The notes: a model not told the origin generated them from the letters alone. 46,401 nt of DNA from Reclinomonas americana ATCC 50394 (GCA_048213135.1 PS015054.1:85090-131490), one strand, 5' to 3'. Shown: positions 127 to 45,803, counted from the first letter of the stretch. A program made the numbers and translations.

Positions 127-1113
127 TCAATTTCCCGCGCATTCCTCGCGTAGCTGATTGTCAGTGGCGCGTCGACGTCGTGCCGTTTCCAAGTCAGTGC
201 GCAGCTGTCGAATGCGGGGCATGACTGCGTCGATGGCCTCTGCGGCCGAGTGGAAGTAGTCGTGCAGCGCGGTCGCCAGGTACACCGTGCCCTCCATCGA
301 CTCAAAGTCACTGCACGTCACGATCAGTCAGCACACACACACGGGCAGAGGTACGCACGAGCAGTGAGCGCACCATCGCTCCACGGCGTACTGCATCATG
401 CGTACAGCGTACTGGCCGAGATCGTCGACCAAACCGGCGGCCGCTTGCACACGAGCCTGTCGCACGTGGTCGGTGGGCCGGTGAGCAAGTTTGCGCCGCA
501 GACCGGTCAGCGTCTGCCGAGCGTCGCGGTAGGCGCGCCTGGAGGTGACCACCTTGTCTTTCAGGAGATCGGCCACAAGGTCCTCGGCGGGGATGACCAG
601 GCGGTCGGCCACAGTGTTGTAGATGGCCGACTTGTTCAGCGCCTGCGTGCGCGCCTTGTGAGCACTCACTGGCGATGATAGATTTGCAGTAACACTCACC
701 ACTGTGCGCAGGGCGTCGGAGAAGCGTGCCACGGTGTCGTTGCGACACCGAATGGCCACGTTGGAGATGATCTCGGCCACTTGCGTCTCCAATGTCGCCG
801 ACTCTGCGCAAGTTGGTTTTTTGAGCGACGATGGAACTTCTGCGCAAGCACAGAGACGTACGCAACTCAAGCTCTGCTGGGCCATCTCGCGGCCGACGGA
901 GATCATCTGGTGCATGTCATGGCTTGTGTGCACGCAGGCGGCTTTCAGCGAGTCGTATCCGACGGCCTTTCGCACGGGCTCTGTCGACGAGAACAGCGGA
1001 CCGGCAGCAGGAGGCGACTGCGGCGAGCCAGGCGAAGATGCCAGGGGTGGTGGTGTTGTTGTCGTTGTCACTGCCGACAATTTGGGCGTGCGAGGAAAGT
1101 GTGTTGCTGTTTG

Positions 1114-1156
<43 letters not shown>

Positions 1157-1403
1157 GAAAACCAACGACCGCATGCAGTGAATGCACACAACCGGTGAGT
1201 CCGAGTTGCTCTCTGTCTCTCTCGACCAGTTGTCTTCACAGACAGGGTGCGCGAAACTCACCTGCGGCAGACTTGCTGTCGCCGTCGCCATCGACGCCGA
1301 GATGCACAGTGTGCAATGCAGGCTGCTGGCGCAGTGCATGCCATACACTCTCGGCACCGATCTCCGATCGTGTCGGTACTGCACACGACTGCCGACAGCC
1401 CAT
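127..1403 (-). CDS. Multi-exon hypothetical protein with an N-terminal MGCRQS acylation-type motif and a helical, possibly BAR-like C-terminal half
   Basis: GT-AG intron 1107-1261 and further short introns join ORF pieces 1236-1508, 328-1239 and 127-321 in frame; C-terminal amphipathic helices (YRDARQTL...HDYFHSAAEAI...IRQLR). The BAR call is by pattern only. Confidence 0.5.
1116..1152. repeat. (GA)n microsatellite in the intron polypyrimidine tract of the minus-strand gene
   Basis: Perfect dinucleotide run read directly. Confidence 0.95.
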
Positions 1404-1734
1404 GAGGTGCGAGGTGAGTGACGGAGTGCTGGGAGAGGAGAGGAGAGGTGTGCGCCGGAGAGTGATGCAAAAAAGAAAGATGAAACATGCACTTCGAAAC
1501 TCCTGCAAGTGACAGTTGACTTGCCTCTCCGTGATAAATTGTGCGCAAATGCATGATGCATGAATGCCACTTCATCATTTGTGGATCGCCATGTTGCCGT
1601 GTTTTGTCGTGTTTTCAAGTCGAACAAACACGGCAAATATCCGAACACTCCGACATCCTTTTTTTTTTCACTTCACACCTCACACACACGCTGACGAGCA
1701 AAGACGAGTCCAGGCGCTCTCTTCGCTGGACATC

Positions 1735-4627
1735 ATGCCGACAACCGACAACTGCGTCTGCGTGGTAATCTACAATGCAAGCGTCCGCATTTTCGACGAT
1801 GTTGCGTTAACGTTCTCAGCCCACCTCCTCTCCGCCTCCGACCCTGCCACTCACTGTGCTGCTGCAAGTACACAGGATATATCGTCCACTGTGTTCGCGA
1901 TGGACTTTGTGTACAGCGGCATCATCTTGGTGCAGCTGCTTGTCATCATGTTTTTCTTGGTGTGTTCAGTTCTCCCTCTCTCACTCCCTCTCTCCTTCAC
2001 CGCCGCAGCCACTGATTCTCCTGCACAGGTGCGAGCCTACTACAATGCACACTCCAGCACCCAGCGTCGGCCACCGATCAAACCCGAGTACTTTGCATTT
2101 CTGATCATCACCACCCTCCTCTTTGTGATGATCACACTCGAGATGACCATCACCAGTGCCGTTCTCGGCATCGCAGTCCACCATGTGGTGGTCAACGGCG
2201 GCCAGTATCTCATCTTCTCGTACGTGGCGTTCACCATTTGGACGCGACCGCGTGAGCTGGAACAGCGGCAACAGCGCCGCTGTGCCGGAGCCCTGCTCTT
2301 TCACACTCATCGCTTTGATCGACCGTGGTTGTGGACCGGCGCGATGTCCCTGTGCATGACAATCACGTTTGTCGTACTGCTGGTGAGACCGACGCCTTCT
2401 GTGAAGGAGACCAGTTCCCTCATGATCTCCTCCTCAAATGCAACAGAACACGCTCGAGTGGCGGTCGGCATCATCGGTGGCGTACAAGAACAACTTGGCG
2501 GTGTCGATTGTGTTCGAGGGCATCCTGGCCGTCACGGGTCTCGTGTCGTTGGTGCGCGCCACTGTCATGCGCCACGGATCTGGTTCTGGTGGTCGCGGTG
2601 GAGTGACCAGCGAGATGTTGTACTCGCTGTATGTGACCGTGGTGTACTCCACCTCGGTGGCCTACGACGCTTTGCTGTGGAAGGACAACCAGACGGGAAC
2701 CGGGCAAGTCTCCTGCAGCACAGCCTGCAACTACGTGACATCGCTCACCGTCCAGTGCACATGGTGCGTACGACTGAATACTGTTGCTCCCTTCATAATT
2801 ACAACTGTCCTGATAATGTGCCTCGCAGCTTCATGTTGCGTGCTCACGTGCCCACTCGCACGCATAACCCATCTACTCTTCTGATCTTCCCAGGCTGCAG
2901 CGTTGTCTACTTTTACTTTCGCGAGGTCAGCAACCAGGCCGCCAATGCCGAAGAGTTTCATCTTTTCCTCGGGCCCGTCAGCAGCATCAACACGCCGCGC
3001 AGCGCCGTGCGCGTGCAAGACGAGGCGCAACTGACTGCAGAAGAGAGACAACGAGGTGCTCCCAACCCAGTGCTGCACCTGATCGGACCGCAAGGCAGCC
3101 GGAGTGCCACCGCCGGTAATGCGTACGGCACAATTGGACTCACCATGTTGCGTGTGTCGTCGCGTCAGCAACACAACAAGGCCCGTAGAATTCATGATGC
3201 ATGTCGCACAGTCAAGTTATCAACCCTGCAGAAATCAAGCTGTTGACGTACATTGGTGGCGGTGCTGGTGGCATGGGTTGCGTACCTCCTATGTTTGTCT
3301 CCGGCTCTGAGTCCTGACATTCATTTCTCCTGCTCCAGTGTACCTGGCGAGGTGGCGCGGCAGACAAGTGGCGGTCAAGCAGTTCCACTTTCCACTCACT
3401 GGCGCCACCCAATACGATGCGGAGATGCGGGAGGAGATGTTGCGGAGCTTCACCCGTGAGCTGCAGGTGCTCGGATCGCTCCGACATGAAAACATTCTCA
3501 CCGGTGCGTGTCACGCCACACTCATTGCCACTATTTCTCTCTCTCTCACCCCGTCAGCAGTGTACGGTGCCACGTTTGGCGAGGAAAAGGTCGGCATCGT
3601 CACCGAGTACCTCCCTCGACGAAGCCTGTTTGCGGTTCTGGATCCCGAGCGACTGCGACAGGAACCCATCACAGCCAGCATTGCGGTACGCTCTCCACAC
3701 ACACACTAAGCAGGCAAAAGAGGTTGATGGAAGAAAAGCCCATGCGTAACGTGCACAGTTGAAGATCGCCGTCGGAGCCGCCCGTGGTCTCCAGTTTCTG
3801 CACTCCCGCACACCACCGATTCTGCATCGCGACATCAAGAGCGACAACGTGTTCCTGTGCGAAGACTGGGAACCGAAAATCGGTGACTACGGTGTTGCCC
3901 GCGAGGTCACAGGTCACACCATGCTTGCCACACGAGTGGTGAGCAATGTGTGACGACTTGGTTGCCACGCCGTCCGTATTCCTCACATTTCTGAACGACA
4001 CACAGGGCACGCCGTCCTGGATGGCCCGTGAGTTCGCCACTACGTGTGTGTGCGTGCGTGCGGGTGTACATCGTCCCACTGACTCCTGCATCCCCGCAGC
4101 CGAGGTGGCCAACGCGCAGCCGCACCTGCCGGCATCTGACGTGTACAGTTTTGGTGAGAAGGACCCTTGGATACAGGCGCTTGCTCCGAGCTCTCATCGT
4201 CCGAATGCTGCAGGTGTCGTCTTGTGGGAGCTCGCGACCAAGCAGCGCCCATTCGCCAACCTGCAAGCCGTGCGCATTATCAACGAACTGGCCAACGGGT
4301 GAGTGAGAACAAGAAGGCTCGCAGTTTTACGAAGCCTCTCTCCCTCTCACACAAACACATGGAGCAGAGTGCTGCAGTTGCCGCTCGAGCCCGACAACGA
4401 CGGCAGCTCCATTCACCCGCGCTTCCCGCAGCTCATTCGCAGCTGCCTCGCTTTCGAGCCCACCGAGAGACCACAGATATCAGCCGTCGGTGCGCACGTT
4501 TGTGATGCGTGCAGTCCACCGCTCCAAGTAGCCGCTCACTTTCCGTGCACACACAGTGGCCACTCTCGAGTCCATGCAGAGCGATGTCGACGGCGTGGAC
4601 CTCCATTCCGATGCCAGCGGGCCGTGA
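1735..4627 (+). CDS. 7-transmembrane protein fused to a C-terminal TKL-group Ser/Thr kinase (about 14 introns)
   Basis: Seven hydrophobic segments at about 1890-2920. Spliced kinase motifs [64 protein letters not shown]. Stop TGA 4625-4627; start ATG 1735 is the best candidate. Confidence 0.85.
2829..2834 (+). other. 6-nt micro-exon (CTTCAT) in TM7 of the 7TM-kinase
   Basis: Flanked by introns 2764-2828 and 2835-2900 (65 and 66 nt), each with a CTGAT branch-like motif and a CAG acceptor. Confidence 0.65.
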
Positions 4628-4989
4628 AATCAATTCAATCACCTGTGCATGGTTCCCGACAAGGAAGACGATGCCTGCAGAAAGTCGGCCCAGCCACTGA
4701 CAAACACCATGTGGTGCTGCAGGTCGCGAGCCAGCGTCTGCGTCTTCCCCGCGATGCGACTCACGCACGCATTCACCTCACTCAGCAGATGCAACGTCTG
4801 CCATGCCGCACACGCAAGTGAGACGAATGGACACATACACATAAACAGACTCATGCACACCTCTTCCAGTTGTTGCTGCAAGCGTTGTTCCGTGTGCTCT
4901 GCCATTCTCACGATCGTGTGTTGTGTTATGTGTGTGAAAGCGACTTGTGTCCTCTGTGACGCGACACGACGTTGGTTGCTTTCGTTTCG

Positions 4990-8052: not shown

Positions 8053-8509
8053 GTACCGGCCCGCAGTGCGTACATCGCGTCGAGTTTGCTCTTCTAGCGT
8101 AGATTCTGTTTGCTCGAGGAGAATTTCTCGAACCGGTTTTGTTGCTCACTTTCCCCGTTTGTTTGTGTATGTTCTTGCAGCCTGGGCCACAGCGTGCGTT
8201 CTCACCATTCTGGCCATCATCTTCCCACCGCTCGCGGTGATGTGTGTCGTTGCGTTTCAAGCGCAGTCGCTGCGACGCACAAGATACTGCGTCAATATTG
8301 CTCACTTCACGCAGACCGGATGCGACGCGCATTTCAGCCTGGATCTGTTGCTGACCATTCTGGGCTACCTGCCCGGTGCGTACAGCTGTGCTTTCCCTCG
8401 TATGCCATGGGCGTTTGTGCTCACGATCGACGTCACGCATGCACATGCAGGTCTCATCTACGCTATTGTCATCATATTCTCGGGCCCGCCATCGTCCGCC
8501 ATTGTGTGA
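8053..8509 (+). CDS. PMP3: PMP3/RCI2 proteolipid membrane potential modulator; 5' exon uncertain (possibly the Gly-rich ATG at 7788)
   Basis: Spliced ILAIIFPPLAVMCV|TGCDAHFSLDLLLTILGYLPG|LIYAIVII; stop TGA 8507-8509. Confidence 0.85.
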
Positions 8510-8989: not shown

Positions 8990-11900
8990 ATGTCACAGCC
9001 TCCACATAAATTGGTGCCGTCGTACGGCGGTGAGAACCCAGGGAGTCACTCGTACCCCATGTTTGGGTCGCCCCCTCCACCACCACTTCCTCCTGTTCCA
9101 CCACCACAACAGCAACAACAGCAGCAGCAACAGCAGCCGCAGATACTCTATCACAACCCACCGGTGCACTTGCTTCACCAGCAGGCGCCATCACAGTATC
9201 ATCTCACTCAGCATCAACATCAGCAACACATGCATCACCACGCAATGCCGCCACCCGAGGTGTACTACTCCTACGCTGGCGACGTATACGCGATGCCTTA
9301 TGACGGTGCGTGTGCTCTTGGCGTGCTTGCATCCCCCCCGTGCTCACCTGCTGGTATCACCGCAGCTGCTGCGTACGCCTGGCCACCGCACGGCGCGTGG
9401 CAGAGTGAGCCACGACAGTCGCGCAACCAATCGAAGAAGTCGCGACCGCGGGCACCGGCGAAGCGGCCGACGCCGCGAGTGAAGAGCATCCAAGATGAGG
9501 CGGAGCCCATGGAGTTGTCGTCACCGGATCCGAATCCTCCCCCGATTCGCTCGAGGAGTCCACCACACGTCTCTGGCAGCAGCGCGTCCAACCCTCCACC
9601 ACAGTCGGGGGCGAAGCGAAGCACGTCGCTGATTGCCAAGTTGGATGCACCGCTGTCGACTCCGCGGCAGCAGTCGCGATCAACCCCAGGTGTTCCGTCG
9701 CCGGTGAAGGGAGCTTCGTCGTCGTCCACGTCAGCTGCCCCTACCAAAGTGGCATTGGCGTCTTTCAAGTCGTCGGCGCCACCGGCACCTCCTTCATCCT
9801 CTTCGTCGGCGTCGTCAGCTCCGCCAGCAGCGGCGAAGCCAGCACAGGAATCGTCGTCCAAGTCATCCGCGTCATCCGCACCTTCGTCTTCTTCGTCATC
9901 GTCGTCAACGAAGCCAGCATCAGCACCGGCAGCGGCGGTGGCGGCGAAGCCAGCACCATCTCCTTCCTCTGCGTCATCGACGAAACCAGCATCATCGTCA
10001 TCAGCCGCGAAGTCGGCACTGGAATCGTCATCGTCTTCTTCGTCATCGTCGTCAACGAAATCAGCATCAGCACCGGCGGCAGCGACGAAGCCAGCACCAT
10101 CTCCTTCACCGGCGTCATCGACGAAACCCGCATCATCGTCATCAGCCTCAGCCAAGCCGGCACCGCAGTCGTCATCTTCTTCCTCGTCTTCGTCGTCAAC
10201 GAAATCAGCATCAGCACCGGCGGCAGCGTCGAAACCAGCATCATCGTCTTCGGCCTCAGCCAAGCCGGCACCGGAGTCGTCATCTTCTTCCTCGTCATCA
10301 TCGTCATCAAAATCAGCCTCAGCACCAGCAGCGGCGACGAAGCCAGCACCGTCTTCTTCATCGGCGTCATCGACGAAACCAGCATCATTGTCGTCCGCCT
10401 CGGCAGCCGCAGCGACGAAGCCAGCATCGGAATCGTCGTCCAAGTCGTCAGCGCCACCCGCATCGTCGTCGTCGTCATCGTCATCAACGAAACCGGCCTC
10501 AGCACCATCAGCAGCGAGGCCAGCACAGGAATCGTCATCCAAGTCATCAGCATCATCCGTGCCGCCGCCGTCGTCTTCTTCGTCGGCCTCATCCACGGGG
10601 AAACCGGCTGGCGGAGAGCCGAGCAAGTCGTCTGCGTCATCGACCAAGACTTCTGCTGCGCCACCGCAGCCGCCACCTGCTTCTGCTGTCAGTGCGGCCG
10701 CACAACCGTCCGCCTTTGTTGGTGCGCCGGGCAAGTCGCTGTCATCGTCAAATAGCAGGAGTGCAATGCCGGCCGTGTCGGTCCCCGCCAAGCCGCCATC
10801 GACAATCACATCAACTGCGACTGCTGTACCCCAGCAGCCGACACCGATCGTCGCCTCAGCCGCCGCTTCTTCCGTGCCTTCTGTGATTGCGACACCGGCT
10901 GTCGCTGGTGGGTTGTTGCCGACAAACGCAGCGGCGGTGATGCCATTGGAGCCGCTGCTGACGGGTCCAGTGATTGTCAACTTTGATTCGTCTTCTGAGG
11001 AAAGCGATGAAGACGAGACCGGTGTCGGTTTCCGTTCCATGGCCACGACCCCCGAGTCTTTGGAGACGGATGAAGATCGTTGCGTGTGCGCGCCAAGTGT
11101 GTCCAGTGGCATTCGAAGCTTCTCTGACCGCAGTCGGCGACACAGGCGTGACAAGTTTTTTGCAGTCGATAAAAGCAGAGATGGAGATCCGCAAGGATGT
11201 TTCGCAACCGCAGCCACAGGCTCTGCCTCCGCTGGGCGCACAGCAACAGCAGCAACAACAGCAACAACAGCAACATCATCCGATCGCTGTGCGTATGACC
11301 GGCACCGACATGTCGAGCATTGCGATGCGTCAGATGGAGCTTGACCGATTGCGGCGTGAGATGGAGCTGAAGCAGCAGGCGCTGAAGCTGTTGCAGCAGA
11401 GGAAGAAGAACACTACGAAAAAACCGGGTTTGTTGTTGCTGGAGGCTTGCAGCGAGCCGTCCGTGTGTTCCTCACGCTACACCAATACAGTGTCGGCCAG
11501 CGTCGAGGCCGAGGTGGCTCCTGTGGTATCCTCATCGGCAGCGGTGACCACGCCGTCACCGTTTGCGTCTCTGGCCGGAAGTGTCGCAGGGCTGACGGAG
11601 CCTTTGAACATGAACGACAATGACCGTTCTCCAGCGTCATTGCTGGCATCGGCGGCGGTACCATCGTCTGCGCCTGTCGAGCAACCCGCATCGGCGCCGC
11701 CAGCGAGAGTACCTCCACCACCAATCGCTTTGCCGGTTCGTCTGGTTGGAGATGTTTTGTTCGTGGTGGTGCGCCTGTGCGTGTTGGTGTTGATTTGTGT
11801 TTTCAATGCAGCAGCGCACGGGAGCTACAAGCGAAGCAACGGGCACTGTGGTGGGTGTGGGAAAACGTTCGCTACAGGAGAGCCAGAGTTCGGATGGTGA

Positions 11901-31249: not shown

Positions 31250-32312
31250 TTATGTCGTCGGCAGGGAGAACACAAAGAGTCGAGCGAGCTGGTTGATGGA
31301 CACAGCAGGTAGAGCACTGCTGCTGTCTCCTTCGCCTCCACTGCTGCTGCTGCTGGCATCGTCGGCTGTGTGCAATGGACATGCAATGAGAATCAGTCTC
31401 TTTTTTTTTCCCTCAGTCAGTGCACGTACGAGTGGTTGCCGGTGGTGGCACGAGCTCACGCACGTCGCACACGACATTCAGTGTCTCGGCCACCTGTCGC
31501 ACGTCGTCCACGCCGACCATGGAGCGCTGCACAAAGGTCAAGAGGAATCGGCGCGCGGCAGTCGTGGCCAGACACGCGCGCACAGTGCGAAGCAGTGCCG
31601 GTAGTGCCGCGGGTTCGTAGCTGCCGGCCGTACACAGAGCCTCAGTGTGGAGGAGGAAGACGGGGGGTGGGGGGAGGAGAGCGCGGAACGCAACATGAGG
31701 TCGGCCCCGACGAGCACATCGACACGCGACACGTCCTTGAGCACCTCCTGCAGCGCCGCCTCGTCGCCCCACGGCAGCTTGCGCACCAGCACGTTATCCC
31801 TGCCGCCACTGTACATGTCAGCGCATGCCCAACGACTTCTCCAAGACAGACGACAGAGACCGATGCGGAAAGTTGAGCTCGACATTGCGCCGCAGCACGC
31901 CCACCGATCCCTCATCGCCATCCGTGAGCACCACCGGCCCTCGCGTCAAGTGTCCACACAGCAGGCCGCACAGACCGACGCCGGAGCCCAACTCCAGCAC
32001 GCCCTCATCGCCCGTCGGAAAAATCTTGTCGCGATCGTCCGCCAGCAACAAATCGCACAGCAATCGCGACGCCGGCCACAGTACACGCGGGACATACGCC
32101 GCCACGTGCTGCAAGTGTCGCGGGAACGTCAGCAGACGAATCGGAGGCACTTGTCGCGACAAGACAATCGAGTGGCATTCGACACTGCCCATAGAATGAA
32201 AGTGAGTGAGTTGCTTTTTGCGATTGTGCATTCGGGCGTACCTCTCGCCGGCATCGTCAAACGCGTCGGCAAGAGCGCCAAAGAGGCCTTCGTCGTCGCC
32301 CACATCGCTCAT
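31250..32312 (-). CDS. Seven-beta-strand protein methyltransferase, METTL21/Methyltransf_16 family
   Basis: VLWPASRLL, VLELGSGVGLCG, VVLTDGD, LRRNVELN, LPWGD and spliced GADLIYEP; alternative ATG at 32333. Confidence 0.9.
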
Positions 32313-32377: not shown

Positions 32378-34953
32378 ATGACGCGGGCGGCGACACTGCT
32401 GTTGCTGCTGCTGGCCACGAGCCTCTTGATGGCCGTGCACGTACATGGTGAGTTGTCACTTGTTGTCTTTGTTGTTTTGTGTGTGTGCGCGTGCGGCACG
32501 CGGGATCACATGGGCGCATGCCACCTCCTCAAACTGACTCTTCTCTCTCTTTCTATGCGTGTGTGATTGATTGACAGGCATGTTCAAGGGCGTGTACATG
32601 GGCGTGGAGCGTGTCGAGCCTGGCGACTACTGTTGCGTGCATTGTTGTTGGTCTTGTTTTGTAACTGCTCTTCGTTGTCTCACTTGCTCTCTCTCTCACA
32701 CACACAGACGGGTAAACACGCCGCACTCACACACTGAGAGGCTGTGCTTCATGCTCACTCACTCACTCACTCACTCTCACTCACAGATGGGCGTTTCACA
32801 ATGTGAAGGAGGGCGAGTATCCTTTCCAGGTGACAGTCGTCGGCAATCAAACGTGCAACTCGGTGTTTGAGTGGGACGGCATGTCGCTCTCGCACCTCTC
32901 CTATGATCATCCCGAGTCCAAGGACTGCGAGCATGCGTCATACAGTTGAGCATCTCTTCTTTCTTTCTTACGCACACACATGCTCACTCGGCGACTGACA
33001 CGTGTCCGTTTTTTTCTCTACTTTCTGCAGTGGCGGTGGCTGCGGACTTTACGCGCACTGGTCTCGACGATGTGCTGATCACCAGCATCAAGGATGATGT
33101 TGCGCGCGCGCTCTCTCTCTCACGCACGCCCGCACACACACCTGTCTCTCACAAACATTGGTGCACAGGAGCCTGTCCACGTGATGCACTTTGCGCGTAA
33201 GCTGGTGGTCGATGCTGTGGAGATGCGTGGCGTCAAGAACGGCATGGCCTTCAATCGCGAGGCGGCTGCGCAGTACCAGTTCCTGGCCTCCACGGAGGAA
33301 GGACTCAAGTGCGTTCGATTTTCCTTGCCTGCGTGTGTCCTCGTTGGCTGACATTGCAGTGTGCGCGTCAGGGTGTTCGAGGTGGAGCAGGAGACCAAGA
33401 CGGGCTTCCACGTGGCGAGCAAGGACGCGACGGAGGGCTCGGGCTTTGCGGGCGAGCCGGCGAGCAAGGCCATGCTGGTGGGACCGTACACCTCGCAGCG
33501 TTCCGATGTGCTGGTGGGCTTCCGCCACTACAAGAACATGCGCAACGGACGCTACAAGCTGGTAAACTCCAAGTTCCCGGCGTCGGAGCGCGCCGCCTCG
33601 GCCAATGCGCTCTTTGCGCATGTGGACTTGCGCGACGGCAACCGCAACATGGCGATTATCGAGGCTGACCCTGAGCGTTGCGTTCCTTTTCGTCGTTTGT
33701 TGTTGCACTGCACGTCCGTCTCACACGTGCTGCAACGCAACAGACGGTCAGCGCTTGTGGGTGCTGGAGGACGACACGGAGGAGTACGTGAACGTGGCCA
33801 CGGGTGCCTTTGCCAGCAAGATGAACGTGCAGAGCGTGTGCGTTGCCGATTTCGACAATGACGGCTTCCAGGAGGTGTTTTTGCAGTTGAGTCCCCTATT
33901 CCGCTCACCCTTTCCCCCTCCAGCTTCCTTCCCTTTTTTTCCTTACCCGCATACACGCGCGCGCAGCAACTCGGGTGAGCCGAACCGCATGTTCACGGTC
34001 AAGGACAACAACCTGGTGGAGATCGACGCGGGTGAAGCGGCGGAGCCGGAGCGCCTCGGCACTGGTTGCGCCGTCGGTGACTTTGACGGAGACGGCTACC
34101 AGGAGCTGGTGCTGTCGCACCGCAACGAGACTGCACTGTTGCCGCCCAAGTACATGCGCAAGAGCGTGTACGAGCGCACCTCTGGCAAGGCCGCCTACGA
34201 CGCTATGATGAAGCAGAAGGAGGCGGAGCAGAAGCGCAAGTCCAAGAAGAAGCGCGACGAGGAGAACGGAGTCAACTCTGCGGACGACGAGGAGGAGGAG
34301 GCCAAGAAGAAGAAGGACGAGGAGTGGGTCGACAGCGACAAGGCGCAGGAGGAGAAGAGGAAGAAGAAGAACAAGAAGAACGCCGACAAGAAGAAGTCTG
34401 GCGATGATGACGACGACGCCGCCGCCGGCAAGGACGAGAACGAGTCGCCCAAGATCCGCAGCAATGAGGACGACGATGACGATGATGATGACGACGCCGA
34501 CGACGATTCGGACCCACTTGAGGAGATCTTCTACCACCCCATCACGCTGTACAAGCTGGTCAAGCGCCCCAAGCACCGCCGTATCGCCTTCTTGCCTCTG
34601 ACGCTGATGGGCGCACCGGCTCGCCACGTGTGGGTGCAACTGAAGGACACGGAGGGTGGCGTGCAGACTCGCGTCATTGACACGCACCACTCGCACCTGG
34701 GCGGCGAAGAGGTATGCTGTGAATAGAGTACTGTGTATGTATGTGTGTGCGCTAAGCTCGACAGTCTCTTACCTACTATTCTGATGCATCGCAGCCGATT
34801 GCCAGCTTTGGTTTGGGACCCAAGGCCGCGCTGGAAAAGATCAACCTGATCTACCCCACGGGCATGACCAAGGAGATTGCACTGGCCCTCGACCTCAACA
34901 AGGTGCACCAGATCTCGTACCCGCCAGACGCCATTATCCGCGACGAGCTTTAA
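32378..34953 (+). CDS. CRTAC1-like FG-GAP/VCBS beta-propeller plus ASPIC-UnbV domain protein, with a signal peptide, a K/D/E-rich insert and C-terminal RDEL
   Basis: MTRAATLLLLLLATSLL signal; ADFTRTGLDDV, ADFDNDGFQEVF..N..EPNRMF, GTGCAVGDFDGDGYQELVLSH, PLT..GAPAR, QTRVID....LG.EEPIASFGLG; ends IIRDEL-TAA. Confidence 0.85.
32708..32711 (+). other. 4-nt micro-exon (ACGG)
   Basis: Lies between introns 32632-32707 and 32712-32786; needed to keep the frame (YYGWAFHNV). Confidence 0.8.
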
Positions 34954-36962: not shown

Positions 36963-39886
36963 ATGGCGGCAGTGACAGGTACGCGCTCTCCTTGCTTCTC
37001 ATCTGCATGCCTCTCCTCTCTCTCTCGCTGACTCGCGCTCGCCAGACTTGCAACGTCGACTTCGCGAAGCCGAACATGCGACGGTCTCGTTGCAAAAGCA
37101 GCAGCACTCGATGCAGCAACGAGTTGCGCGATGAGCGTGAGAGCACGCAACACACACACATTGCACACTGAGATCGCGTCTGCACAGGTCGACGAGCTCA
37201 TGGAGGAACTGCGCGTGACGCGACGCAAGTTGGAGACACAGACACACGAGTTTGACTTGCTCAAGCGCAGTGTTGCGTTGCCTCTGTGCATGCGTGCGCG
37301 TACGTGCTATGTACACACACTCTCTCACACTTCGACACACACACACACAGAGCGAAAAAGTAACGACACAGAAACGCGATTGCGATCGACAACTGGAAGA
37401 GGCGCGAAACTACATCAAACGACTCGAGTCTCGCGTGGCCAAGGATGTGCGAGGCATTCAGCTGGTGGAACGCAGTCAGGTGCGCCTTTTATACACGCAC
37501 TTGCCTCTCCTCCCCTCCTCGTTTCCTCACGCCAACTCTGATAGAACGCGGAACGAAGGGCAGCAGTCATGGAGCGATTGGTGGAGGATCGTGAACAGAA
37601 GGAGGTACAGACGCGAGAGCAGCTGGAGGCCGCGCAACGTGAGATTCGTCTCCTCACTGGTGCGCCGCTTGCCTCTTGCCTCTCTGTCTCCGCTGGTGTG
37701 TGTGGCTCACCGTGCGTTGGCAGAGGCACTGGAGATGAAGGCCGAAAACCTCGGTGTCACCGGCAACTATCGCAGCGTGCTGTTGTACGACATTGCCAAG
37801 CTGCGAGAGCAGAACAGGCAGCTGAATGTGCGCGTGGCGGAGATCCGGATGGAGCGCGACTCGATGACTGAGGAGTTGAAGCAGCAAGCCATGACTGGTG
37901 CGCTTCTTCTTCTCGTCTCTCTCTCTCTCTCTCCTCTCTCTCCTGTCCACAGATGCTGACTGGTGCGGCGTGCACGTGTATTAGTGGCTCGCATGCAGGA
38001 GATTACGCGGAGTGCGGGGGCGGCAGTGGACGAGGCTCGGCAGCGCATGAGCGATGCCGAAGAGGAGTCGAGGCAATCGCAGGAACGACTTGGTGCGGTG
38101 GAGCAGGAGAAGGAGGTGTTGCTGGAGTACATTGAGAAGCTGGTGGAGGAGAGTGCCACGTTCCGCACACGGGCCGAGCATGCTGAGGACGAGGCGCAGG
38201 GGCGCGCAGCTCAGGTTCAGTTGACTCGCAACTCGCCTGTCTCTCTGTCGCTCTTGCTGTCTGAAAACGTATCTCGCGCACAGGCTGCCGATCTGCAGGC
38301 ACAACTCTCGGCGTTGCAGCAACAGAAACGGTCGGTAGAGGAAAAGACGTCGGCGGCGCAGCTTGCACGCGATCTGCACGACAAGTCCACACGGAAAGAG
38401 TTGAAGACTGTTCAGCAACAGGTGTGTGTGCGCTCGTGTTTTCGCATACCTGGCGGATGCCTGACGGGGGGAGTTTTGTGTGTGCTGCACGATGCAGTGC
38501 GCTGAGCTGGAGGCTCGACTGCAAGAGGCGCTTCGTGTCAGTGGCGCACTGCAGCAAGATAATGCGGCACTGCGTACCGATTTTGCGCGTGTTCAGCAGC
38601 AGCAGAATGCAGACGAGATGCGAGTGCGCGAGTTGGCGCTGGCCATGAGTGACCTGCGTCGCGAGGTATACATGTGCTCCACCTTTCCACTCTCTTGTTC
38701 TCGATTCGGCTCAGTTTTGCGCACATACGCACACACAGAATGCCGCGCTGGCCGCGGAGCGCGATCGAGTACAGAGCGAATCGCAAAAGACCGAGGCTCG
38801 ATACCTCGACAAGATGAATCAGTTGCTCACCGAACTGAAGATGGTCATTAGCCAGCGGGACGCGGCCATTGCGGAGGCCAAGTCGCTGGCGGCCGCACGG
38901 GATTCCGCACGGCAGGCCGAGGAAAAGGTTTGCAGTGCATTATCCAACTTGGATCGCTCTATGATTGCATCGCTCACCGATGGATGGATGGGGCAGTCGA
39001 AAGCTGCCGACGATCGTGTCAACGAGGCCGAGCGAACCAAAGTGATGCTGAGACGAGCGCTCGCCACCCAGATCGAAGGTCTTCAGGTGCAGCTCGATGC
39101 CGCACATCGCAGCGTTGACGACCTCAAGGCACGCCTGCACGAGTCCGAGATTGATCGGCAGCGATTGAAAGTTCGTCCTCGGTGGGATGATGCTTGTTTC
39201 GTTCAAGGCACTCACCCCCCCTGTCTCCATCTGCGTGCAGTTGCTAGCTCAGTCCAGGAATCGTGGCGGGTCGCCGACACCGGCAAACATTGATCCGCGC
39301 TCGCCGTTTTCGCAGCTGAGTCCACTCGGGAGCTCCGTTGCCTCGCCGTTCGATCCGTCCGCTGCTGCCGCCGTCGACTCACCAAGCTCGTTGGGTGGTG
39401 AACTCGGCACTGCTCTGGCGGGTGGGCGGAGGAGGAGACGGGCGACCAAGGGCACGCTGCAAGACTCGACACCAACAGGCGACGAGGATGCCGACGAGTT
39501 GGATTTGAGCTCCAACTCCGAGGATGAGTTGGCCGACGATAGTGACGACGACGACGGCGACGATGGACAGCGGGCGAACGGCAACAGGAAGAATGGGAGG
39601 AGTGCAGTCGCCGACGACACGAGCAACGACACATCGACGCACCGAGCCGACGGCAAGCATGTTCGGATAGCAGCGACGGACAGCAACGCACAGCCGCTCG
39701 ATGTGCAGTTTCACATGGAGCAGGGCATGAGCGTGCCGGCTTCAGACTCGGCCGATGGTTTGTGGTGCACTTTGTCTCTTCTTGTCTTTCTCTTTCTGAC
39801 GTGGGGGAGAGGGAGCAGGCGCCTTGAAACCTCTGCGGACGCTAATGGATATTGCCGAGGCAGAGGAGGCCGATTTTTACTCGTGA
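36963..39886 (+). CDS. Long coiled-coil hypothetical protein with an acidic/disordered tail
   Basis: Consecutive GT-AG introns give a continuous E/Q/R/L/A-rich heptad frame from MAAVTDLQRRLRE to AEEADFYS-TGA. Confidence 0.75.
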
Positions 39887-39963: not shown

Positions 39964-42900
39964 TTATTCTCCAAACAACGTGGCTTTGTAGCGGTTCACC
40001 AGCGACTGGAAGTCGTGGTCGTCCTTGCGATCCTGCAGCTTCTCGCGCGTTCTCGATCGCTTCTTCTCTACCACAGGCGCGCTGGCTGCTGCTCCTGCCC
40101 TTGCGGGCGCTGGCGCCGCCGAACGGACCATACGTGGCTTCCTCGTCATGGTGCCTTCCGGCTCACTCGCCACTCGTCTCTCCTCGCTGAAACGGCGGGC
40201 CTTGACCGGCGGCGTTCGATCTGACGAGTTTCTCTCCGACGGCGCGTCCGCACTGGGTGCCCGCTTTCGCTTCGATCCTGCTCCCGAGCCATTTTCTGTC
40301 GCCGTGGGTCGAGCACGACCAGGAGAAGGACCGCCGGCTGCAGCGCCACGTTCTTGCCTCTTGGGCCTCCTATCCTGCTGCTGCTGCTGGTGCGGCTTGT
40401 TGCGCCTTTCGTCACCCGACTTACGCTCCCGTGACGACTCCCTCCGAGCGCCGCCCGCAGGCGACGATGCTGCGACGCCGCCATTCTGCAATGCGGCCAA
40501 TCGCTGCTGACTGCGGTTCCGCCCGATCTCCTGATGCTTTCGCAGCTGCTGGAGAGCCAAGTGATTCTCCACCGCAAACTCGACTGACGGTCACACACGC
40601 AGTGTGAGGCAAAAAAAAGGAAATGTCACAGGACTGCGACGCGAGAGAGAACACGCACCAATTAACCGACGGTCCTTGGAGAAGTACTTCGGGTTGTTGT
40701 TGAGCGCTCGCAAGGCATGCAGTGCGTGCTCATGCTCGGCGAATTCGACGAAACCGAAACCGCGGCTGCGTGGCTCACCAGTGCTCGGATCGATGCGCTC
40801 CGGATCACGCACAATCTTGACCTGCTTGACAGCAGCCTTGCGGTTGCCGCCCTTGGTTTCATGAATCGCGGTCATGCACAGTTGACGGAGTGATGCCTCG
40901 TTGTAATGCACAGGTAGGTTGCGGACGGAGAGACGAGTCTGTTGCACATGGAGAGTGGTGAGGTGGAGAAAGCAGCGGAAGCAGAAGAAGAAGAATAATG
41001 GACGCAACGGTCGAGACAAAGTTGTTGGGGTTCTTCAGCTTCTCCTTCTTCTCCTTCCAGGCGGCCTCACGCTTCTTCATGTCGTACTCAGAGATCTCGG
41101 CAGCAGCCTCGCTGTCCGGCATGATCACTGCGCGTCGCAATTGTGTCAGCAAACAGGAAACGAAATAAGAGTTGGACGCAGTGATATGGCACACGCACCG
41201 CCCTCCTTGGCCAAGTACAAATTGCGGCCGTCGCTTTTCTTGGCCTCGTACTCCTTGCGCTCCTGCTGACGCCGTGCGGCCTCGTCGGAGGAGACGGCCT
41301 CACACAGAATCAAACGGCGACCCGATATTCTCACGCCCATGTCGCCGAGCTCCGTGTCCGTCACTAGGATTTTCTTGTTGCTCAACTTCTCCTTTCTGCG
41401 ATCAGCTGCCTGTTGCTCGAGTGCCTTCTCGGCAGCAGTTGACTGTGCGCAGACACGCACACAGACGATTGAGTAGGAGCTCAAGCAGGTGTGTGAGGGA
41501 GAGAGAGAGCTACTCACCACAGAGAGTGCCGCCTGCGCAGATTCACGCTTGGAGAATTGCACGAATGCAGTGCCGCGCGGATGTCCGGTAACCTTGTCGA
41601 GCACCACACGGCAGTAGGCGACACGGCCGAATTCGGAGAATCTGGCAACGCAGTCAGTCGCCGCCAAGAGATATGAGAAGCAGATCGACAGTGAGCAACA
41701 CACACACACCGCTCCTTCAATTCCTGCTCCGTCACCTCGAAAGGCACATTGCGTACAAACAGCAGTGCACCATCCTCCGCTGAACACAAGCACAAACAGT
41801 CAAACTCGTCAGCCTCATACGTTGTGTGTGGGGAGTAACGGTTCGGCGCAACGAAGATGCTTTGGGCGGGGTTCTGTGCACGTATGGCATGAGTGACTTG
41901 TCGACCACAACAAAACACACGCACAATCTCACACTGTTTCTCACCGTTCGTGGTAGTGGTAGCTTTCGCAGCGGCGGCAGCTACAGCACAGAAAGAAACA
42001 CACACATGAGTGCTTTCAAACCACAGAATGAACGGAGGAGATCGGGAGCGCAACAGCGGTGGTCGACGACATCGTCCGTGTCCATGACCTCGGCCAGTGC
42101 TTCCTGCTCATCAATCACTTCGTCGTCGCTGCCCTCTTCCTCATCTTCGTCCTCCTGCTCGTCATCATCACTGGCATCGCTCCCGTCGTCGCTCTCATCC
42201 TCCTCTGACTCCTCGGCGGCGACTGCATCATCGGCATTCTGCATCTCCTTGTCGTCCTCGTCTTCCTCTTCTTCGCCCTTCTTACTCTTCTTCTTGTTGC
42301 TGCCGTCCACCTCCATGTCGTCGGTCGCACCGCTCTCCTGCAGCATCTTCTCGTACTGCACCTTGGCCAGTGCGTGATCCACGGCAATCGTGCGTCCCAT
42401 GAATTCTGTCGCATTCATGCCAGCAATAGCCTGATATAGCATTCAGTGAAGGGTGATGGGAGGCAGAGCTGCAAAGACGGTCACACACCTCATCGGCCTC
42501 CTCTCGCGTCGACATTTGCACAAAGGCAAATCCACGCAGCCGACCGTCGGCCATGCGCGGGATGTTGGCGTCGACCACGTTGCCGAACTTGGAAAACGCC
42601 TTGCGCAGCTTTTCTTCGCCGCACTACCACCCATCCACACTCGTGAGTCGAGCATGCACCAGGCAAGTGAGCTGCAGAGGCAAAAAACGCAACGTGGAAA
42701 GGCATGTTGCGGATGATCAGACGGTGACCCTTGGTACTGAGCACAGCATCCTGCAATTGGGTGCGAGGCAGTGAGGAAAACACGCAAAAGCACTAAAATC
42801 CCCCTTGCGAGTCATGATACGCACTCCTGTGAAGCGCACGAGAAGCTTGCGAGCGGCACCCAGGGCTTTGCGTCCGTTGAGTTTGGTAACCACTTTCTTG

Positions 42901-43991
42901 GCGACCTCGTCCTTGACGTAGCGCACCGTCACTGCACACACACACGAGTGGCGACAAAGCAAATGAGATCAACACAGTGGGGACGTGATGCTACAATGCC
43001 CGTGCCATCCACTCACCTACATCGTCCTCGAAGTTGACGGCCTCGACAGCACCGTACTTCCGCAGCTTCTTCTCAATGGCTTTGCGATTCTCCGTCACCT
43101 CTTCCTCGCTCAGCCCGGTGATCTTGATGTCACGCAGCTTGATGGTGGGATGGTGAATCTCCCTACCACACAACAACGCGGGCGTCACACAACCATCGCG
43201 GACCATGCACACACACACACAGCTCGACGCAACTCGAGCTTCTTTCGGCGTCTTTCCTTCTGCTTCTCTCGCTTCTTGTCGATCTTGGCTCGACGACGTG
43301 CGGCCTCGGGGGTCTCGCCATCGATAGCCGCTGCAGTGGCCTTTTTTGCAGGCGAGGTGGTCGTGGTGCTCGTCGTGCCCTCGTCTGCAAGAAAACAACC
43401 GACGGAAATAATGAGCGAATGTCGCCCGCTGGTGGTGCTCTGCGTGGAGACACATACCTTCGACTTCTTGTCTGAAGCCACGCGGCTGCGCCCGGTCGAC
43501 CTTGAGCACTCGCCCCAGCCACTCAGTGCCATTCAGCGTCTCCACTGCGGTCACTGCATCGGCCTCCAGCGCACTGCATGCATACCACAAAGCTGCGTGA
43601 GCGTGGCCGCCGATCGGAGAATGCAAGACAACACGAGACGCAACAATTCCACAAAGGCGAATCCCTTGCTCTTGTGCGTCTCTGCACATACAGTACACAA
43701 GTCATCAGCAGAGGAAAGAGCACGGGTGCATGCCGAAACAACCAACCTCGATCGCACACAATGAAGGCGCGCTTGATTGGTGCCACTGCCGCAAAGTACT
43801 CCTCGACTGCACACATCGACACACACACAAAAAAAAAGAGTGAGGACCGGTGGTCACAGGGTCTGTGCATGTGAATGTGCACCAACACTCACACAGCCCC
43901 ATTCTTCTTCCACCACGCAACTTTTCTCATTGTCAGCCGAGAACGGCAGGTTCCGCACAAACACGGTGCACGGCAACTCGAGCTTCGGCAT
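39964..43991 (-). CDS. RBM28: Nucleolar multi-RRM ribosome biogenesis protein RBM28/Nop4
   Basis: RRMs VFVRNLP..SKGFAFVEF, RLIIRNMPF..RGFAFVQM, LFVRNVPF..PRGTAFVQF and RLSVRNLP..SRGFGFVEF; DGRNLYLAKEG, KLKNPNNFVS and ALRALNNNP signatures. Confidence 0.95.
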
Positions 43992-44093
43992 GCGGGCGGC
44001 TCACACAAACACACACTGCAAAAGACTGGACAGATTGATGAGTGCGAGCAACACTGTCCACAGCGATCCTGCACGACTACGTACGCGTAGACG

Positions 44094-45803
44094 ATGAGCT
44101 CGGTGGCGGAGAAGCGCAAGCGGGTTCTCCAGGAGCGCGAGCGCTTCTTCCGTCTGCGCGAAGCCGCTGCCGTGCAAGAAGAGATGACAGGAGGCGCATC
44201 CTCAGCTCCTCCTCCTCCTCCACAACAACAACGCGTTCGCACTCCATCGCCTCCACCACTAATGACAACTGCTGCAGTGCATCAGCCACCACGACGGCGG
44301 ACAGGAGCATCGGGCGCAGCGGTGCGATTGATCGGGGAAGGAGGGGTGTTATTTTCGCGCGCGCGCACGCCAGCTGATATGTGTGTGTTGTTGGCGCGTA
44401 GGCGGTCGATGCGGTACATACGGTGGAGGTACTGGATCGCTTGTGGACGCGCATGGAGGGGCGCATTCGTGAGGAGTTGGGCGTGCAGGCGTCGGCGGCG
44501 GCGCTGTTGCAGCAGCAGCAAAAGTTTCGCGTGCGATGACTTGTCCCTTGTGTTTTCCGCTCGGTCGCCTGACTGTGTGTCTGAGGGCAGGTTGGGTGCG
44601 GGTGGATCGGGTGCGGCGGTGGAGCTGGAGGCGTATCGGTGTGCGATCTGCTTGGAGATTATGGCGCCACCGGAACGGTGCCCGATTCTGTTGACACCGT
44701 GTGGGCACTCGTTTTGGTGCGTGCGTGCGTGTTTGTGTGTGCGAGTACACGTAGCGTGCGCTGAGCGATCGATGTTGATGGTGCTCGGCAGCGATCAGTG
44801 CATGGGTCGGTATCAGAAGCTCGGCAAGGCCACATGCCCAATGTGTCGCACACCAGTTGTGTATGCTGCATCGATGACAAGTTCATATCAACGACTGTGC
44901 TGATCTCTCCACTTCTGCAGATCAAGGCGAGCGCCAAGAACATCTCTCTGAAGCAAATCATCGAGGAGTACATTGTACAGGAGCGGGAGGTGTGTGTGTT
45001 GGCGTGGTGGGAAGCCACTCGTTCATGCGGATGAGTAACCCCTTTCAACGTATCATCGTCAGCACCAACGATCGCTGGCCAACGGGCCACCCAAGACGGC
45101 CCTGCAGCAAATGATATCGAGTGGTGCGCATGGTTCGAGTGCACTCGTCGCCAACGAGCGCATCCTCGAGGCCCTTCGTGACATTCCCGACGAGGAGACG
45201 CAACAGCGGGCACAGAGGTGTGTCTGCAGTCCCCTTGTCGGCACCGAGCATCTCTGTCTCTCTCACACACTCCCATCACGCGTTCAGGTACTTGCAGTCG
45301 TACCGCACCTACAACATTCGATACCAGGTGTTGTCGGACGAGTTGCGCGACACCATGGGCGAGCAGCGACAATCGCGTGAGAGGCACTCGCAGTTGCGTG
45401 CAGCGAGGATGAGGAACGAAGGCCAGCGTGGTCCACTCCTCACACCACTCCTGCAGACGCGAGAGGCAATGTCGCGACGTTGAAGCGCGTGCGGCATACC
45501 TGGAAGCACAGATCCGCTCAATGCAAGACGAACTGGAGATGTTGACGAGCCGGCTGCACGTGATGCACGACGAGGTGACGTTGCATGCCTGTAGCAAAGC
45601 GCATAAAGCGGGGAAGGAACTCAACAACGACCGTCTGTGTTTTGCAGTTGGACGAGGAACAAGCGACGCAGGAAGAGATCGACCAGCGTGTGGATCTGTG
45701 CCAGAGAACACTGACACAGGTCGAGCGAGACCGCGACAAGGCGCGAGTCTTTGTGGAGAACCTGTTCCCCAACCTGGATCTGGATCGCCTGGAGGATGGT
45801 TGA
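44094..45803 (+). CDS. RING-HC finger protein with coiled coils (probable E3 ligase)
   Basis: Spliced CAICLE...PCGHSFCDQC...CPMCR...NISLKQIIE; stop TGA 45801-45803. Confidence 0.85.

Follow-up and report, generated by a model that had tools for sequence, protein, structure and literature searches.

In a stretch of 46,401 nt from Reclinomonas americana ATCC 50394 (GCA_048213135.1 PS015054.1:85090-131490), hereafter the window, we confirmed a second class of 5' splice site. Its consensus is (A or T)/GTTGCGT, the slash marking the cut, and that of the ordinary class is G/GTGNGT. All results come from this one 46-kb window. They show that the sites of the second class, written GTTGNG below, are real donors, that the class is frequent, and that its exon-side preference is shifted by one base. 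The class accounts for roughly 40-50% of introns in the window. Judged from their sequences, the introns are genuine members of the GT-AG spliceosomal type and short in the ordinary way (median 70 nt), with a CTNAY branch-like motif and a CAG end.

A rigid donor motif in the window

A sequence-only reading of this DNA had listed 30 donors of the form GTTG[ACT]G, and the motif was present at all 30 positions, on the strands given (24 GTTGCG, 3 GTTGAG and 3 GTTGTG). The conserved G and T that it had claimed at +6 and +7 were found at 30/30 and 25/30 sites, respectively, with G at +5 in 0/30. Within the heptamer, T3, G4 and G6 were each present in 30/30, and C5 in 24/30, a stronger preference than that for C at +4 of ordinary donors (17/37; p=0.017). 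On both strands of the window, GTTGCGT occurred 39 times, compared with 12.17±3.70 expected from 100 dinucleotide shuffles, none of which contained at least 39 copies. Against an order-3 Markov expectation it was the top 7-mer other than simple repeats, level with ACTCACT/AGTGAGT (z=7.6).

We sorted the 30 sites into four tiers (Table 1). Ten have a junction fixed by homology (tier A), 12 are predicted introns of gene models with a length not divisible by three (tier B), four are predicted introns with an in-frame length (tier C), and four are unused by gene models and carry the motif only (tier D); 20 of the 30 sites, as well as the set of ordinary donors, are thus assigned from gene models or motif alone. 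Among 75 introns predicted by the gene models, 27 began with GTTGNG and 33 with GTRNGY. A relaxed gene model used 26 of the 39 GTTGCGT copies as donors, and in a gene model without donor scoring GTTGCG was already the commonest donor hexamer (8/62). Together with a share of 10 in 20 homology-pinned junctions, the gene-model counts bear out the earlier description of a mainstream second donor class. The described intermixing was likewise found, the same genes also containing GTGAGT, GTGCGT, GTGTGT and GTAAGA donors.

Table 1. GTTGNG sites and ordinary introns used for comparison. Coordinates are positions in the window; entries called candidates give the donor heptamer, and introns on the minus strand begin at the higher coordinate.
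Feature	Coordinates	Strand	Donor (and acceptor)	Intron length (nt)	Tier	Junction or basis
Donor candidate	860..866	-	GTTGCGT	63	C	gene model, in frame
Donor candidate	1801..1807	+	GTTGCGT	75	C	gene model only, in frame
Donor candidate	2835..2841	+	GTTGCGT	66	C	gene model only, in frame
Kinase gene intron	3147..3211	+	GTTGCGT	65	B	frame continuity and gene model only
Kinase gene intron	3277..3338	+	GTTGCGT	62	B	joins IGGGAGGM-(V), read directly from sequence
PMP3 intron	8249..8314	+	GTTGCGT...GCAG	66	A	joins PPLAVMCV/TGCDAHF
Donor candidate	11079..11085	+	GTTGCGT		B	gene model only
Donor candidate	12518..12524	+	GTTGCGT	164	B	gene model, acceptor uncertain
Donor candidate	13742..13748	+	GTTGTGT		D	motif only
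Donor candidate	21339..21345	+	GTTGTGT		D	motif only
ALG5 intron	26550..26614	+	GTTGCGT...TCAG	65	A	joins NAVRT/GAFLARG
ALG5 intron	27014..27084	+	GTTGCGT...GCAG	71	A	joins QHLK/RWCFDVELL
Donor candidate	29014..29020	-	GTTGAGA		D	motif only
G-alpha intron 5	29381..29444	-	GTTGCGC...ACAG	64	A	
G-alpha intron 4	29704..29773	-	GTTGCGT...ACAG	70	A	joins SLSE/FD
G-alpha intron 3	29999..30053	-	GTTGCGT...GCAG	55	A	joins DSAEY/FFENL
Donor candidate	31688..31694	-	GTTGCGT		B	relaxed gene model only; splice would give GADL-I-YEP
FG-GAP gene intron	32632..32707	+	GTTGCGT	76	B	gene model
FG-GAP gene intron	32945..33030	+	GTTGAGC	86	B	gene model
FG-GAP gene intron	33099..33168	+	GTTGCGC	70	B	gene model
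FG-GAP gene intron	33677..33743	+	GTTGCGT	67	B	gene model
FG-GAP gene intron	33886..33966	+	GTTGAGT	81	C	gene model, in frame
Donor candidate	37123..37129	+	GTTGCGC		D	motif only
Donor candidate	37272..37278	+	GTTGCGT		B	gene model
Nop4/RBM28-like intron	40939..41008	-	GTTGCGT	70	A	donor in 18/22 homologues
Nop4/RBM28-like intron	42624..42693	-	GTTGCGT	70	A	donor in 19/22 homologues
Donor candidate, variable linker of Nop4/RBM28-like gene	43227..43233	-	GTTGCGT		B	gene model, 1/22 homologue votes
Nop4/RBM28-like intron	43574..43644	-	GTTGCGT	71	A	donor in 14/22 homologues
Nop4/RBM28-like intron	43807..43921	-	GTTGCGT	115 (gene-model length)	A	donor in 15/22 homologues
Intron	44856..44920	+	GTTGTGT	65	B	gene model
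Ordinary ALG5 intron	26798..26863	+	GTGCGC			-1 G; 32/35 homologues
Ordinary G-alpha intron	30409..30472	-	GTGAGT			-1 G; 17/18 homologues
Ordinary Nop4/RBM28-like intron	41642..41709	-	GTGTGT			-1 G; 22/22 homologues

Junctions fixed by homology

Homologous proteins were aligned to the DNA with a spliced aligner that requires GT..AG and applies a flat intron penalty and no motif scoring. For nine of the 30 donors, which lie in the genes for G-alpha, ALG5 and a Nop4/RBM28-like protein, this motif-blind aligner arrived at precisely the position given in the sequence-only reading, and a tenth, in PMP3, was fixed by Pfam profile coordinates. The motif restoration claimed for the cuts in PMP3, ALG5 and G-alpha is anchored in homology, by spliced alignment or by Pfam.

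Three of the five G-alpha introns belong to the second class, as had been stated. Introns 3 and 4 were each recovered with 18/18 homologues, and in an alignment without any GT/AG rule (P0001) their boundaries and the mRNA were unchanged, with ends GT...AG; the junction at intron 3 was also gap-free in MAFFT. The donor of intron 5 was chosen by 9/18 homologues, which are all the alignments that reach the C-terminus, and its acceptor was split between a 64-nt intron (four homologues) and a 76-nt intron (five homologues). In ALG5, the donor at 26550 was supported by 35/35 homologues, 34 of them with the acceptor of the 65-nt intron, and that at 27014 by 31/35, one homologue choosing 27062 and three alignments ending earlier. 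For PMP3, residues 5-20 of the 22 in exon 1 match positions 2-17 of PF01679, so that exon 1 ends at position 19, and residues 1-20 of exon 2 match positions 20-39; the profile is thus contiguous over the junction, from 19 to 20. In the Nop4/RBM28-like gene, the donor at 43644 lies directly 3' of an RNP1-like ...AFVEF, the upstream exon matching RRM_1 positions 30-45 to its last residue, and the 14 homologues that select this donor support the FAFVEF cut proposed for RBM28.

These junctions bear on the reading of the class as an artefact, whether of wrong gene models or of a systematic assembly error that inserted T into GTGCGT. Although homology leaves 20 of the 30 sites unfixed, it fixes ten junctions, two of them even without the GT/AG rule. 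HGTGCGT occurs 57 times in the window against 48.7 expected, which indicates no systematic conversion of GTGCGT after a non-G base, and a G-to-T error at AG/GTGCGT would interrupt G-alpha with a stop codon (GAG TAG). We regard an artefact as extremely unlikely.

Protein kinases carry GxGxxGxV and VAVK at an established spacing, and the cut at 3277 appears to restore the protein kinase glycine loop. In the FG-GAP gene, the FG-GAP_3 match begins just past the acceptor of the 33677 intron and stops just short of the 33886 donor, and a putative 4-nt microexon (32708-32711) after the 32632 intron is needed for the frame. A Pfam search of both exons flanking the 31694 donor found no family.

Intron features and exon-side preference

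The median intron length was 70 nt in the GTTGNG class, compared with 69 nt in the ordinary class, and no difference in composition was found between these 27 and 33 introns. A CTNAY branch-like motif lay between 5 and 45 nt upstream of the intron's 3' end in 21/27 GTTGNG introns (median 20 nt) and 26/33 ordinary introns (median 17.5 nt), and C occupied acceptor position -3 in 23/27 and 30/33, respectively.

Introner elements, transposons found in some algae and other protists, generate many introns that have a terminal sequence in common. A recent spread of such mobile elements with a GTTGCGT 5' end would fit the rigid common heptamer and the similar lengths (55-115 nt). However, an all-against-all blastn search of 60 intron interiors returned only microsatellite-type matches of 12-20 nt, which crossed both classes; unlike in introner elements, the similarity is confined to the 7-nt donor, plus microsatellites, and length and composition are as in ordinary introns. 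An introner origin is, in our judgement, highly improbable.

On the exon side the classes differ. G stands at -1 in 32/37 ordinary donors and in only 2/30 GTTGNG donors, the latter falling short of the 29% expected from base frequency (binomial p=0.003), and the homology-fixed subsets gave 8/8 and 1/10 (Fisher p=4e-4). The -1 distribution of GTTGNG donors differed from that at ordinary -1 (p=1.8e-9) and resembled that at ordinary -2 (p=0.37). Further shifted comparisons agreed, with p=0.88 for GTTGNG -2 against ordinary -3 and p=0.43 for GTTGNG +8 against ordinary +7. A slide of one base aligns the consensuses, N-A-G-T-T-G-C-G-T over N-A-G-G-T-G-C-G-T, so that G at +1 of a GTTGNG intron falls on the last exon G of the ordinary class and the two consensuses differ only at the following position, where T replaces G. 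Because the -1 base of GTTGNG donors behaves as the ordinary -2 base, these data favour a register shifted by one base and speak against a bulge.

In a bulged-U register, G+1 would pair with C8 and U+2 with A7, one U of +2/+3 would be bulged, and GCGU would pair as in GTGCGT, so that the class would consist of ordinary donors in which a single additional base is tolerated. GTTGCGT is GTGCGT plus one T, and among variants with an extra base T alone is enriched (GTTGCGT 3.15x, GTAGCGT 1.4x, GTCGCGT 1.1x, GTGGCGT 0.86x), which fits a degenerate +2/+3 bulge, a register validated in human (Tan et al. 2016, PMC4856993). However, G at -1 should then keep its pairing with C9 and stay preferred, whereas it falls from 32/37 to 2/30, and the energy of the bulged consensus site is worse than that of the shifted register (see below). 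We consider the bulge quite improbable as an account of the class.

Pairing with U1 and models of recognition

Pairing energies were calculated with the canonical U1 5' end, AUACUUACCUG (ACUUACCU at the 5' end of a canonical U1 gene), from which the organism's own U1 may differ. The GTTGNG class paired at -1.55±1.72 kcal/mol, compared with -2.56±2.17 kcal/mol for 300 random GT sites and -6.94±2.72 kcal/mol for ordinary donors. At the consensus site the registers ranked as a shift would predict, with +0.1 kcal/mol for the shifted, +2.2 for the bulged and +2.6 for the canonical one, but none was stable with canonical U1, and the unconstrained best duplex placed G+1 on C9 in only 6/30 sites. Since canonical U1 pairs this class more weakly than random GT sites, a shifted register on the textbook U1 is insufficient. 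The routine shifted-register recognition claimed earlier is thus unsupported if read with that U1, and GTTGAGT, the expected best pairer, showed no enrichment in the window (7 vs. 6.0 expected). The sequence-only reading had also named a variant U1/U6 snRNA or altered U1C/Luc7/Prp8 as possible causes. An Rfam search of the window returned no match.

The weakness of canonical pairing points to an adapted U1 5' end in the host or to a second U1 variant. We consider it probable that such a U1 binds both classes in one frame, which for GTTGCGT would lie one base downstream of the cut. The component that first reads the 5' splice site, by default U1 snRNP and presumably so here, would engage both classes in this common frame, and later components would then place the cut at the sole available GU. 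Such a U1 is predicted to have A at position 8, G/C-compatible positions 5/6, or both.

Alternatively, a U1-like snRNA or U1 paralogue complementary to GUUGCGU could serve this class while GTGNGT is read by another U1, so that two specificities would operate in parallel inside one U2-type spliceosome. The GTTGNG heptamer varies far less than the ordinary consensus, which is in line with a dedicated reader, as is canonical pairing below the random GT level. We also paired two what-if 5' ends, which are hypothetical 11-mer constructs and not data: AUACGCAACUG favoured the GTTGNG class (-11.0, against -6.5 for ordinary donors) and AUACGCACCUG did the reverse (-7.1 and -10.75, respectively). The 3' signals are, however, identical in both classes, and because a single adapted U1 resembling AUACGCACCUG would usably pair both, two RNAs are not required. 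A dedicated reader therefore seems unlikely to us.

Weak predicted U1 pairing, together with a core (T)GNGT common to both classes, would also be compatible with recognition by a protein or by U6, U5 or Prp8 without a U1 duplex, TGCGT being a protein-binding or U6-pairing element two or three bases from the cut. Alone, this would leave unexplained both the exact one-base move on the exon side and the restriction of the extra base to T, and it comes without a candidate factor; we judge it very unlikely.

Comparison with known splice-site systems

U12-type introns have a rigid 5' splice site, are interspersed with ordinary introns and use their own snRNAs. The GTTGNG class resembles them as a second class with a rigid donor whose members share genes with ordinary introns, but its branch-like motif and acceptor are as in the ordinary class. 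A U12-type identity was rejected: RTATCCTT occurs twice in the window, neither time at a GTTGCGT site, and 0/7 TCCTTRAY matches correspond to the branch box TCCTTAAC, all being TCCTTGAC or TCCTTGAT. By coordinate and strand, no TCCTTRAY match falls on the sense strand of a listed GTTGNG intron.

Shifted-register mammalian 5' splice sites were reportedly described by Roca and Krainer in 2009, and the register with a +2/+3 bulge at human 5' splice sites is said to have been described by Roca et al. in 2012. In Tan et al. 2016 (PMC4856993), the mammalian shifted register has G/U at +6/+7, all U1 pairs moved by one and the cut at GU, with which the GUUAAGU-type precedent named in the sequence-only reading agrees in kind. 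That paper gives all validated non-canonical registers as 1.5% of 201,541 human sites, among which its Table 3 counts 68 predicted sites of the bulge +2/+3 register, 54 after curation. Like the mammalian shifted register, the GTTGNG class has GT at +1/+2 and a conserved G/U at +6/+7 instead of +5/+6. Unlike that register, which is rare and atypical, it makes up about half of the fixable junctions here, and its consensus is rigid and GC-rich (GUUGCGU), with canonical-U1 pairing under that of random GT sites. With the human bulge +2/+3 register it has in common an extra U beside GU and downstream pairs as in a normal site; that register keeps the -1 G pair, whereas -1 G is lost in the GTTGNG class.

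Implications for splice-site recognition

It is possible, and we put it forward tentatively, that the major spliceosome of this organism has either two parallel 5'-splice-site specificities or one re-tuned U1 whose routine binding is offset from the cut by a base. The two specificities would be a GUGNGU reader and a U1 or U1-like RNA with a 5' end complementary to GUUGCGU, predicted to carry A at position 8 and G/C at positions 5/6; nearly half of the introns would then depend on a recognition RNA not known from any eukaryote. If there were a single re-tuned U1, the U1 register and the choice of cleavage site would be uncoupled genome-wide.

The GTTGCGT donor motif is over-represented

The sequence-only reading had named 30 donors beginning GTTGNG, and all 30 carry GTTG[ACT]G on the strand assigned to them, with C at +5 in 24, A in three and T in three. 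The heptamer GTTGCGT occurs 39 times on the two strands of the window (G+C 58.5%); dinucleotide shuffles gave 12.17±3.70, and none of 100 reached 39. Among 7-mers outside simple repeats, it ranked first relative to an order-3 Markov expectation, tied with ACTCACT/AGTGAGT. The enrichment was confined to T as the "extra" base: GTTGCGT was 3.15-fold over-represented, and the values for GTAGCGT, GTCGCGT and GTGGCGT were 1.4-, 1.1- and 0.86-fold. Neither GTTGAGT (7 vs. 6.0 expected) nor GTTGTGT (18 vs. 19.4) was enriched in the window.

Over the whole window, the most over-represented 7-mers are (CT)n, (GT)n and (CA)n runs (e.g., 32740-32786 and 30580-30650), and many introns are filled by such runs together with ACTCAC repeats. 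Raw counts of GTGAGT are confounded, since its reverse complement is ACTCAC.

Protein homology fixes 10 of the 30 donors

We examined donor use with our own protein-to-DNA spliced aligner, which admitted introns only at GT..AG under a flat penalty and left splice motifs unscored. For the G-alpha gene, 18 homologues were aligned: donors 29773 and 30053 were each chosen by all 18, the ordinary GTGAGT donor 30472 by 17, and donor 29444 by all nine alignments that extended to the C-terminus. When one homologue (P0001) was aligned without any GT/AG rule, the introns at 30053 (55 nt) and 29773 (70 nt) were again removed and the mRNA was unchanged.

Genes identified in the window
Gene	Position	Strand
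TM-receptor-like TKL kinase	1735-4630	+
PMP3	8181-8510	+
Pex19-like	19260-19951	-
ALG5	26076-27340	+
WD40-like gene	about 27500-29100	-
G-alpha	29252-30670	-
FG-GAP gene	32378-34953	+
Tafazzin	35305-36418	-
Coiled-coil gene	37200-39886	+
Nop4/RBM28-like	39964-43991	-

For ALG5, 42 homologues were found, and we used the 35 with 220 residues or more. Donor 26550 was supported by 35 of 35 and donor 27014 by 31, with 27062 chosen in one and an earlier stop in three; the ordinary donors 26798, 27169 and 26145 received 32, 31 and 27 votes. A GTCCGC donor at 26376 (+) was chosen by 20 of the 35 homologues (26394 by nine and 26367 by six), and it seems to be either a weak non-consensus donor or a junction of ambiguous placement within a variable loop. 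The Nop4/RBM28-like gene was aligned to the first 22 proteins of 650-1150 residues in a list of 150 homologues. Its GTTGCGT donors 43921, 43644, 42693 and 41008 received 15, 14, 19 and 18 votes, its ordinary donors 42488, 41709, 41198 and 40658 received 20, 22, 19 and 16, and a GTTGGT donor at 43746 received 11. Donors in the variable linkers scattered, with one vote of 22 for 43233 and six for 42054.

Pfam scanning was performed on open pieces of the window. In PMP3, residues 5-20 of the 22-residue exon 1 matched positions 2-17 of the PF01679 profile, and residues 1-20 of the next exon matched positions 20-39; the two exons are therefore contiguous over donor 8249. The two methyltransferase-like exons at donor 31694 matched no Pfam family. 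Cutting the kinase gene at 3277 gave a 22-residue segment with the known spacing of glycine loop and lysine. Five distant homologues gave no confirmation of this donor, as the glycine-loop exon lay beyond their alignments, and PDB searches with both exons were uninformative on the junction.

Spliced alignments and profile coordinates thus fix 10 of the 30 GTTGNG sites. The sequence-only observation of a GTTGNG donor class is confirmed. Among the other 20 sites, 12 were used in our gene models with an intron length that is not a multiple of three and four with an in-frame length; four (13742, 21339, 29020 and 37123) were assigned on the motif alone.

In the FG-GAP/ASPIC-like gene, a putative 4-nt microexon (ACGG, 32708-32711) lies within 32632-32786 (+), between a GTTGCGT intron of 76 nt and an intron of 75 nt that opens with GTAAAC at 32712. 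The frame closes only with these four bases, and the gene model reached the same solution.

The best homologues of the window genes show 44-65% identity over single exons, and those named are spread over unrelated groups of eukaryotes (a green alga, Mucorales and other early fungi, plants and a tunicate). Searches of protein and metagenome collections found no close relative. A metagenome scan with a tafazzin exon returned 33 loci with a top identity of 43%, which indicates that no close relative is present there, and an atlas search confirmed the identity of tafazzin and added nothing further.

GTTGNG donors make up about half of the homology-fixed junctions

Among junctions on which at least half of the homologues agreed, 10 were GTTGCG[TC], eight GT[GA]NG[ACT] and two others (GTTGGT and GTCCGC). 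When donors were left unscored, GTTGCG was the donor hexamer that the gene finder used most often (8 of 62). Under a two-component donor prior, 75 introns were predicted, and those of at most 130 nt comprised 27 GTTG[ACT]G and 33 GT[AG][ACT]G[ACT], model-based counts that are partly circular because the prior contained the GTTGNG class. A relaxed run used 26 of the 39 GTTGCGT sites as donors, in agreement with the excess of about 27 above chance. Candidate donors of the class absent from the sequence-only reading were predicted at 25315, 45393, 42054, 14763, 21480 and 23716.

Self-training of codon usage from G-alpha drifted into low-complexity frames, and an amino-acid prior was substituted. 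EM over all 137 GTTG[ACT]G sites yielded an acceptor matrix that settled on CTGCAG, and donor self-training from a k-mer table ended in memorised singletons; both were discarded. Four predicted donors (39171, 39758, 43746 and 27658) have T at +3 yet G at +5 (GTTCGT, GTTTGT and GTTGGT twice) and belong to neither main class. Both strands of the low-complexity stretch 9200-11400 have several open frames, with overlapping genes predicted on each, and the GTTG[CT]G "donors" within it at 9427, 10706 and 11208 (-) are doubtful.

The shift extends to the exon side

Of 37 ordinary donors, 32 follow an exon that ends in G; among the 30 GTTGNG donors, the final exon base is A in 14, C in five, G in two and T in nine. 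These exon positions are unbiased because donor scoring drew on intron positions only, and the difference held among homology-fixed donors (-1 G in 1 of 10 GTTGNG vs. 8 of 8 ordinary; Fisher p=4e-4). The -1 distribution of the class differed from the ordinary -1 (p=1.8e-9) and not from the ordinary -2 (p=0.37); likewise, its -2 resembled the ordinary -3 (p=0.88) and its +8 the ordinary +7 (p=0.43). A slide of one base therefore brings the two consensuses into register, NAG-T-TGCGT over NAG-G-TGCGT, with the first G of the intron in the place normally held by the last G of the exon. The earlier proposal of a mainstream, one-base-shifted donor class is thus supported by both the -1 counts and the share of homology-fixed junctions.

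The geometry is that of the "shifted register", which Tan et al. (2016, PMC4856993) describe for a rare kind of human site. A simple bulged register, in which one U is extruded, should retain the -1 G pair, and the near-absence of -1 G in the class argues against it.

GTTGNG sites pair poorly with canonical U1

Duplex energies were computed with ViennaRNA for the canonical U1 5' end in the form given by PMC4856993 (AUACUUACCUG). Ordinary donors averaged -6.94±2.72 kcal/mol (n=37) and GTTGNG donors -1.55±1.72 kcal/mol (n=30), and 300 random GT sites paired more strongly than the latter (-2.56±2.17 kcal/mol). By register, the GTTGNG consensus site scored +0.1 shifted, +2.2 bulged and +2.6 canonical. 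The class prefers C at +5 more strongly than ordinary donors do at +4 (24/30 vs. 17/37, p=0.017), and its A variant, GTTGAGT, would be expected to pair better with canonical U1, yet is not enriched. From the weak pairing, the C preference and the unenriched A variant, we infer that the RNA reading these sites is other than the textbook U1 5' end.

Either a re-tuned U1 or a further variant could fill this role. With hypothetical U1 5' ends, ordinary and GTTGNG donors scored -10.75 and -7.07 for AUACGCACCUG, and -6.47 and -11.01 for AUACGCAACUG. Rfam models at the gathering threshold gave no match across the window. Judged from sequence, the best-supported mechanism appears to be recognition in the shifted register, with an adapted or second U1 as the reader.

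The two intron classes are otherwise alike

GTTGNG and ordinary introns were alike in every 3'-side and bulk property compared. Median lengths were 70 and 69 nt (Mann-Whitney p=0.67), base composition showed no difference (27 vs. 33 introns), a CTNAY branch-like motif was present in 21 of 27 and 26 of 33, and C stood at acceptor position -3 in 23 of 27 and 30 of 33.

We also considered other origins. All-against-all blastn of intron interiors returned only microsatellite matches that crossed both classes, so the introns do not form an introner family. Systematic insertion of a T during assembly is not the cause of the class, since HGTGCGT was found 57 times against 48.7 expected. A search of the window for U12-type signals found none at GTTGNG sites.

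Separately, the U12-type 5' motif GTATCCTT occurs twice, at 32817-32824 (+) and 12307-12314 (-), probably by chance (0.33 copies expected; two reached in 8 of 100 shuffles); the copy at 32817 lies within a coding exon (EYPFQ) and is not followed by a TCCTTAAC box. TCCTTRAY sites (TCCTTGAC/TCCTTGAT) number seven in the window against 2.7 expected, with at least seven in 1 of 100 shuffles, and we found no meaning for them.

Significance

Few features of eukaryotic gene expression are as conserved as the U1 5' end and the GURAGU-type donor. To our knowledge, off-register U1 binding is known only in mammals, as a rare exception. In the human figures given in PMC4856993, validated non-canonical registers combined account for 1.5% of 201,541 sites, and the +2/+3 bulge register for 68 predicted sites, whereas about half of the homology-fixed junctions in this window belong to the GTTGNG class. 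Full-text literature searches for the motif strings returned no splicing report, and a concept search nothing relevant; logos in figures or supplements would escape such searches, and an earlier description may exist in those parts of a genome paper.

Gene finders trained on one donor matrix will overlook GTTGNG introns or set them in the wrong place, and our own gene models required a two-component donor; systematic errors may therefore exist in the annotations of this lineage. A genome with the conserved positions displaced by one base in about half of its donors would be a natural experiment, and so would donors whose pairing with textbook U1 does not exceed that of random GT sites. Such a genome would reveal how cleavage-site choice works apart from U1 pairing and how snRNAs co-evolve with splice sites.
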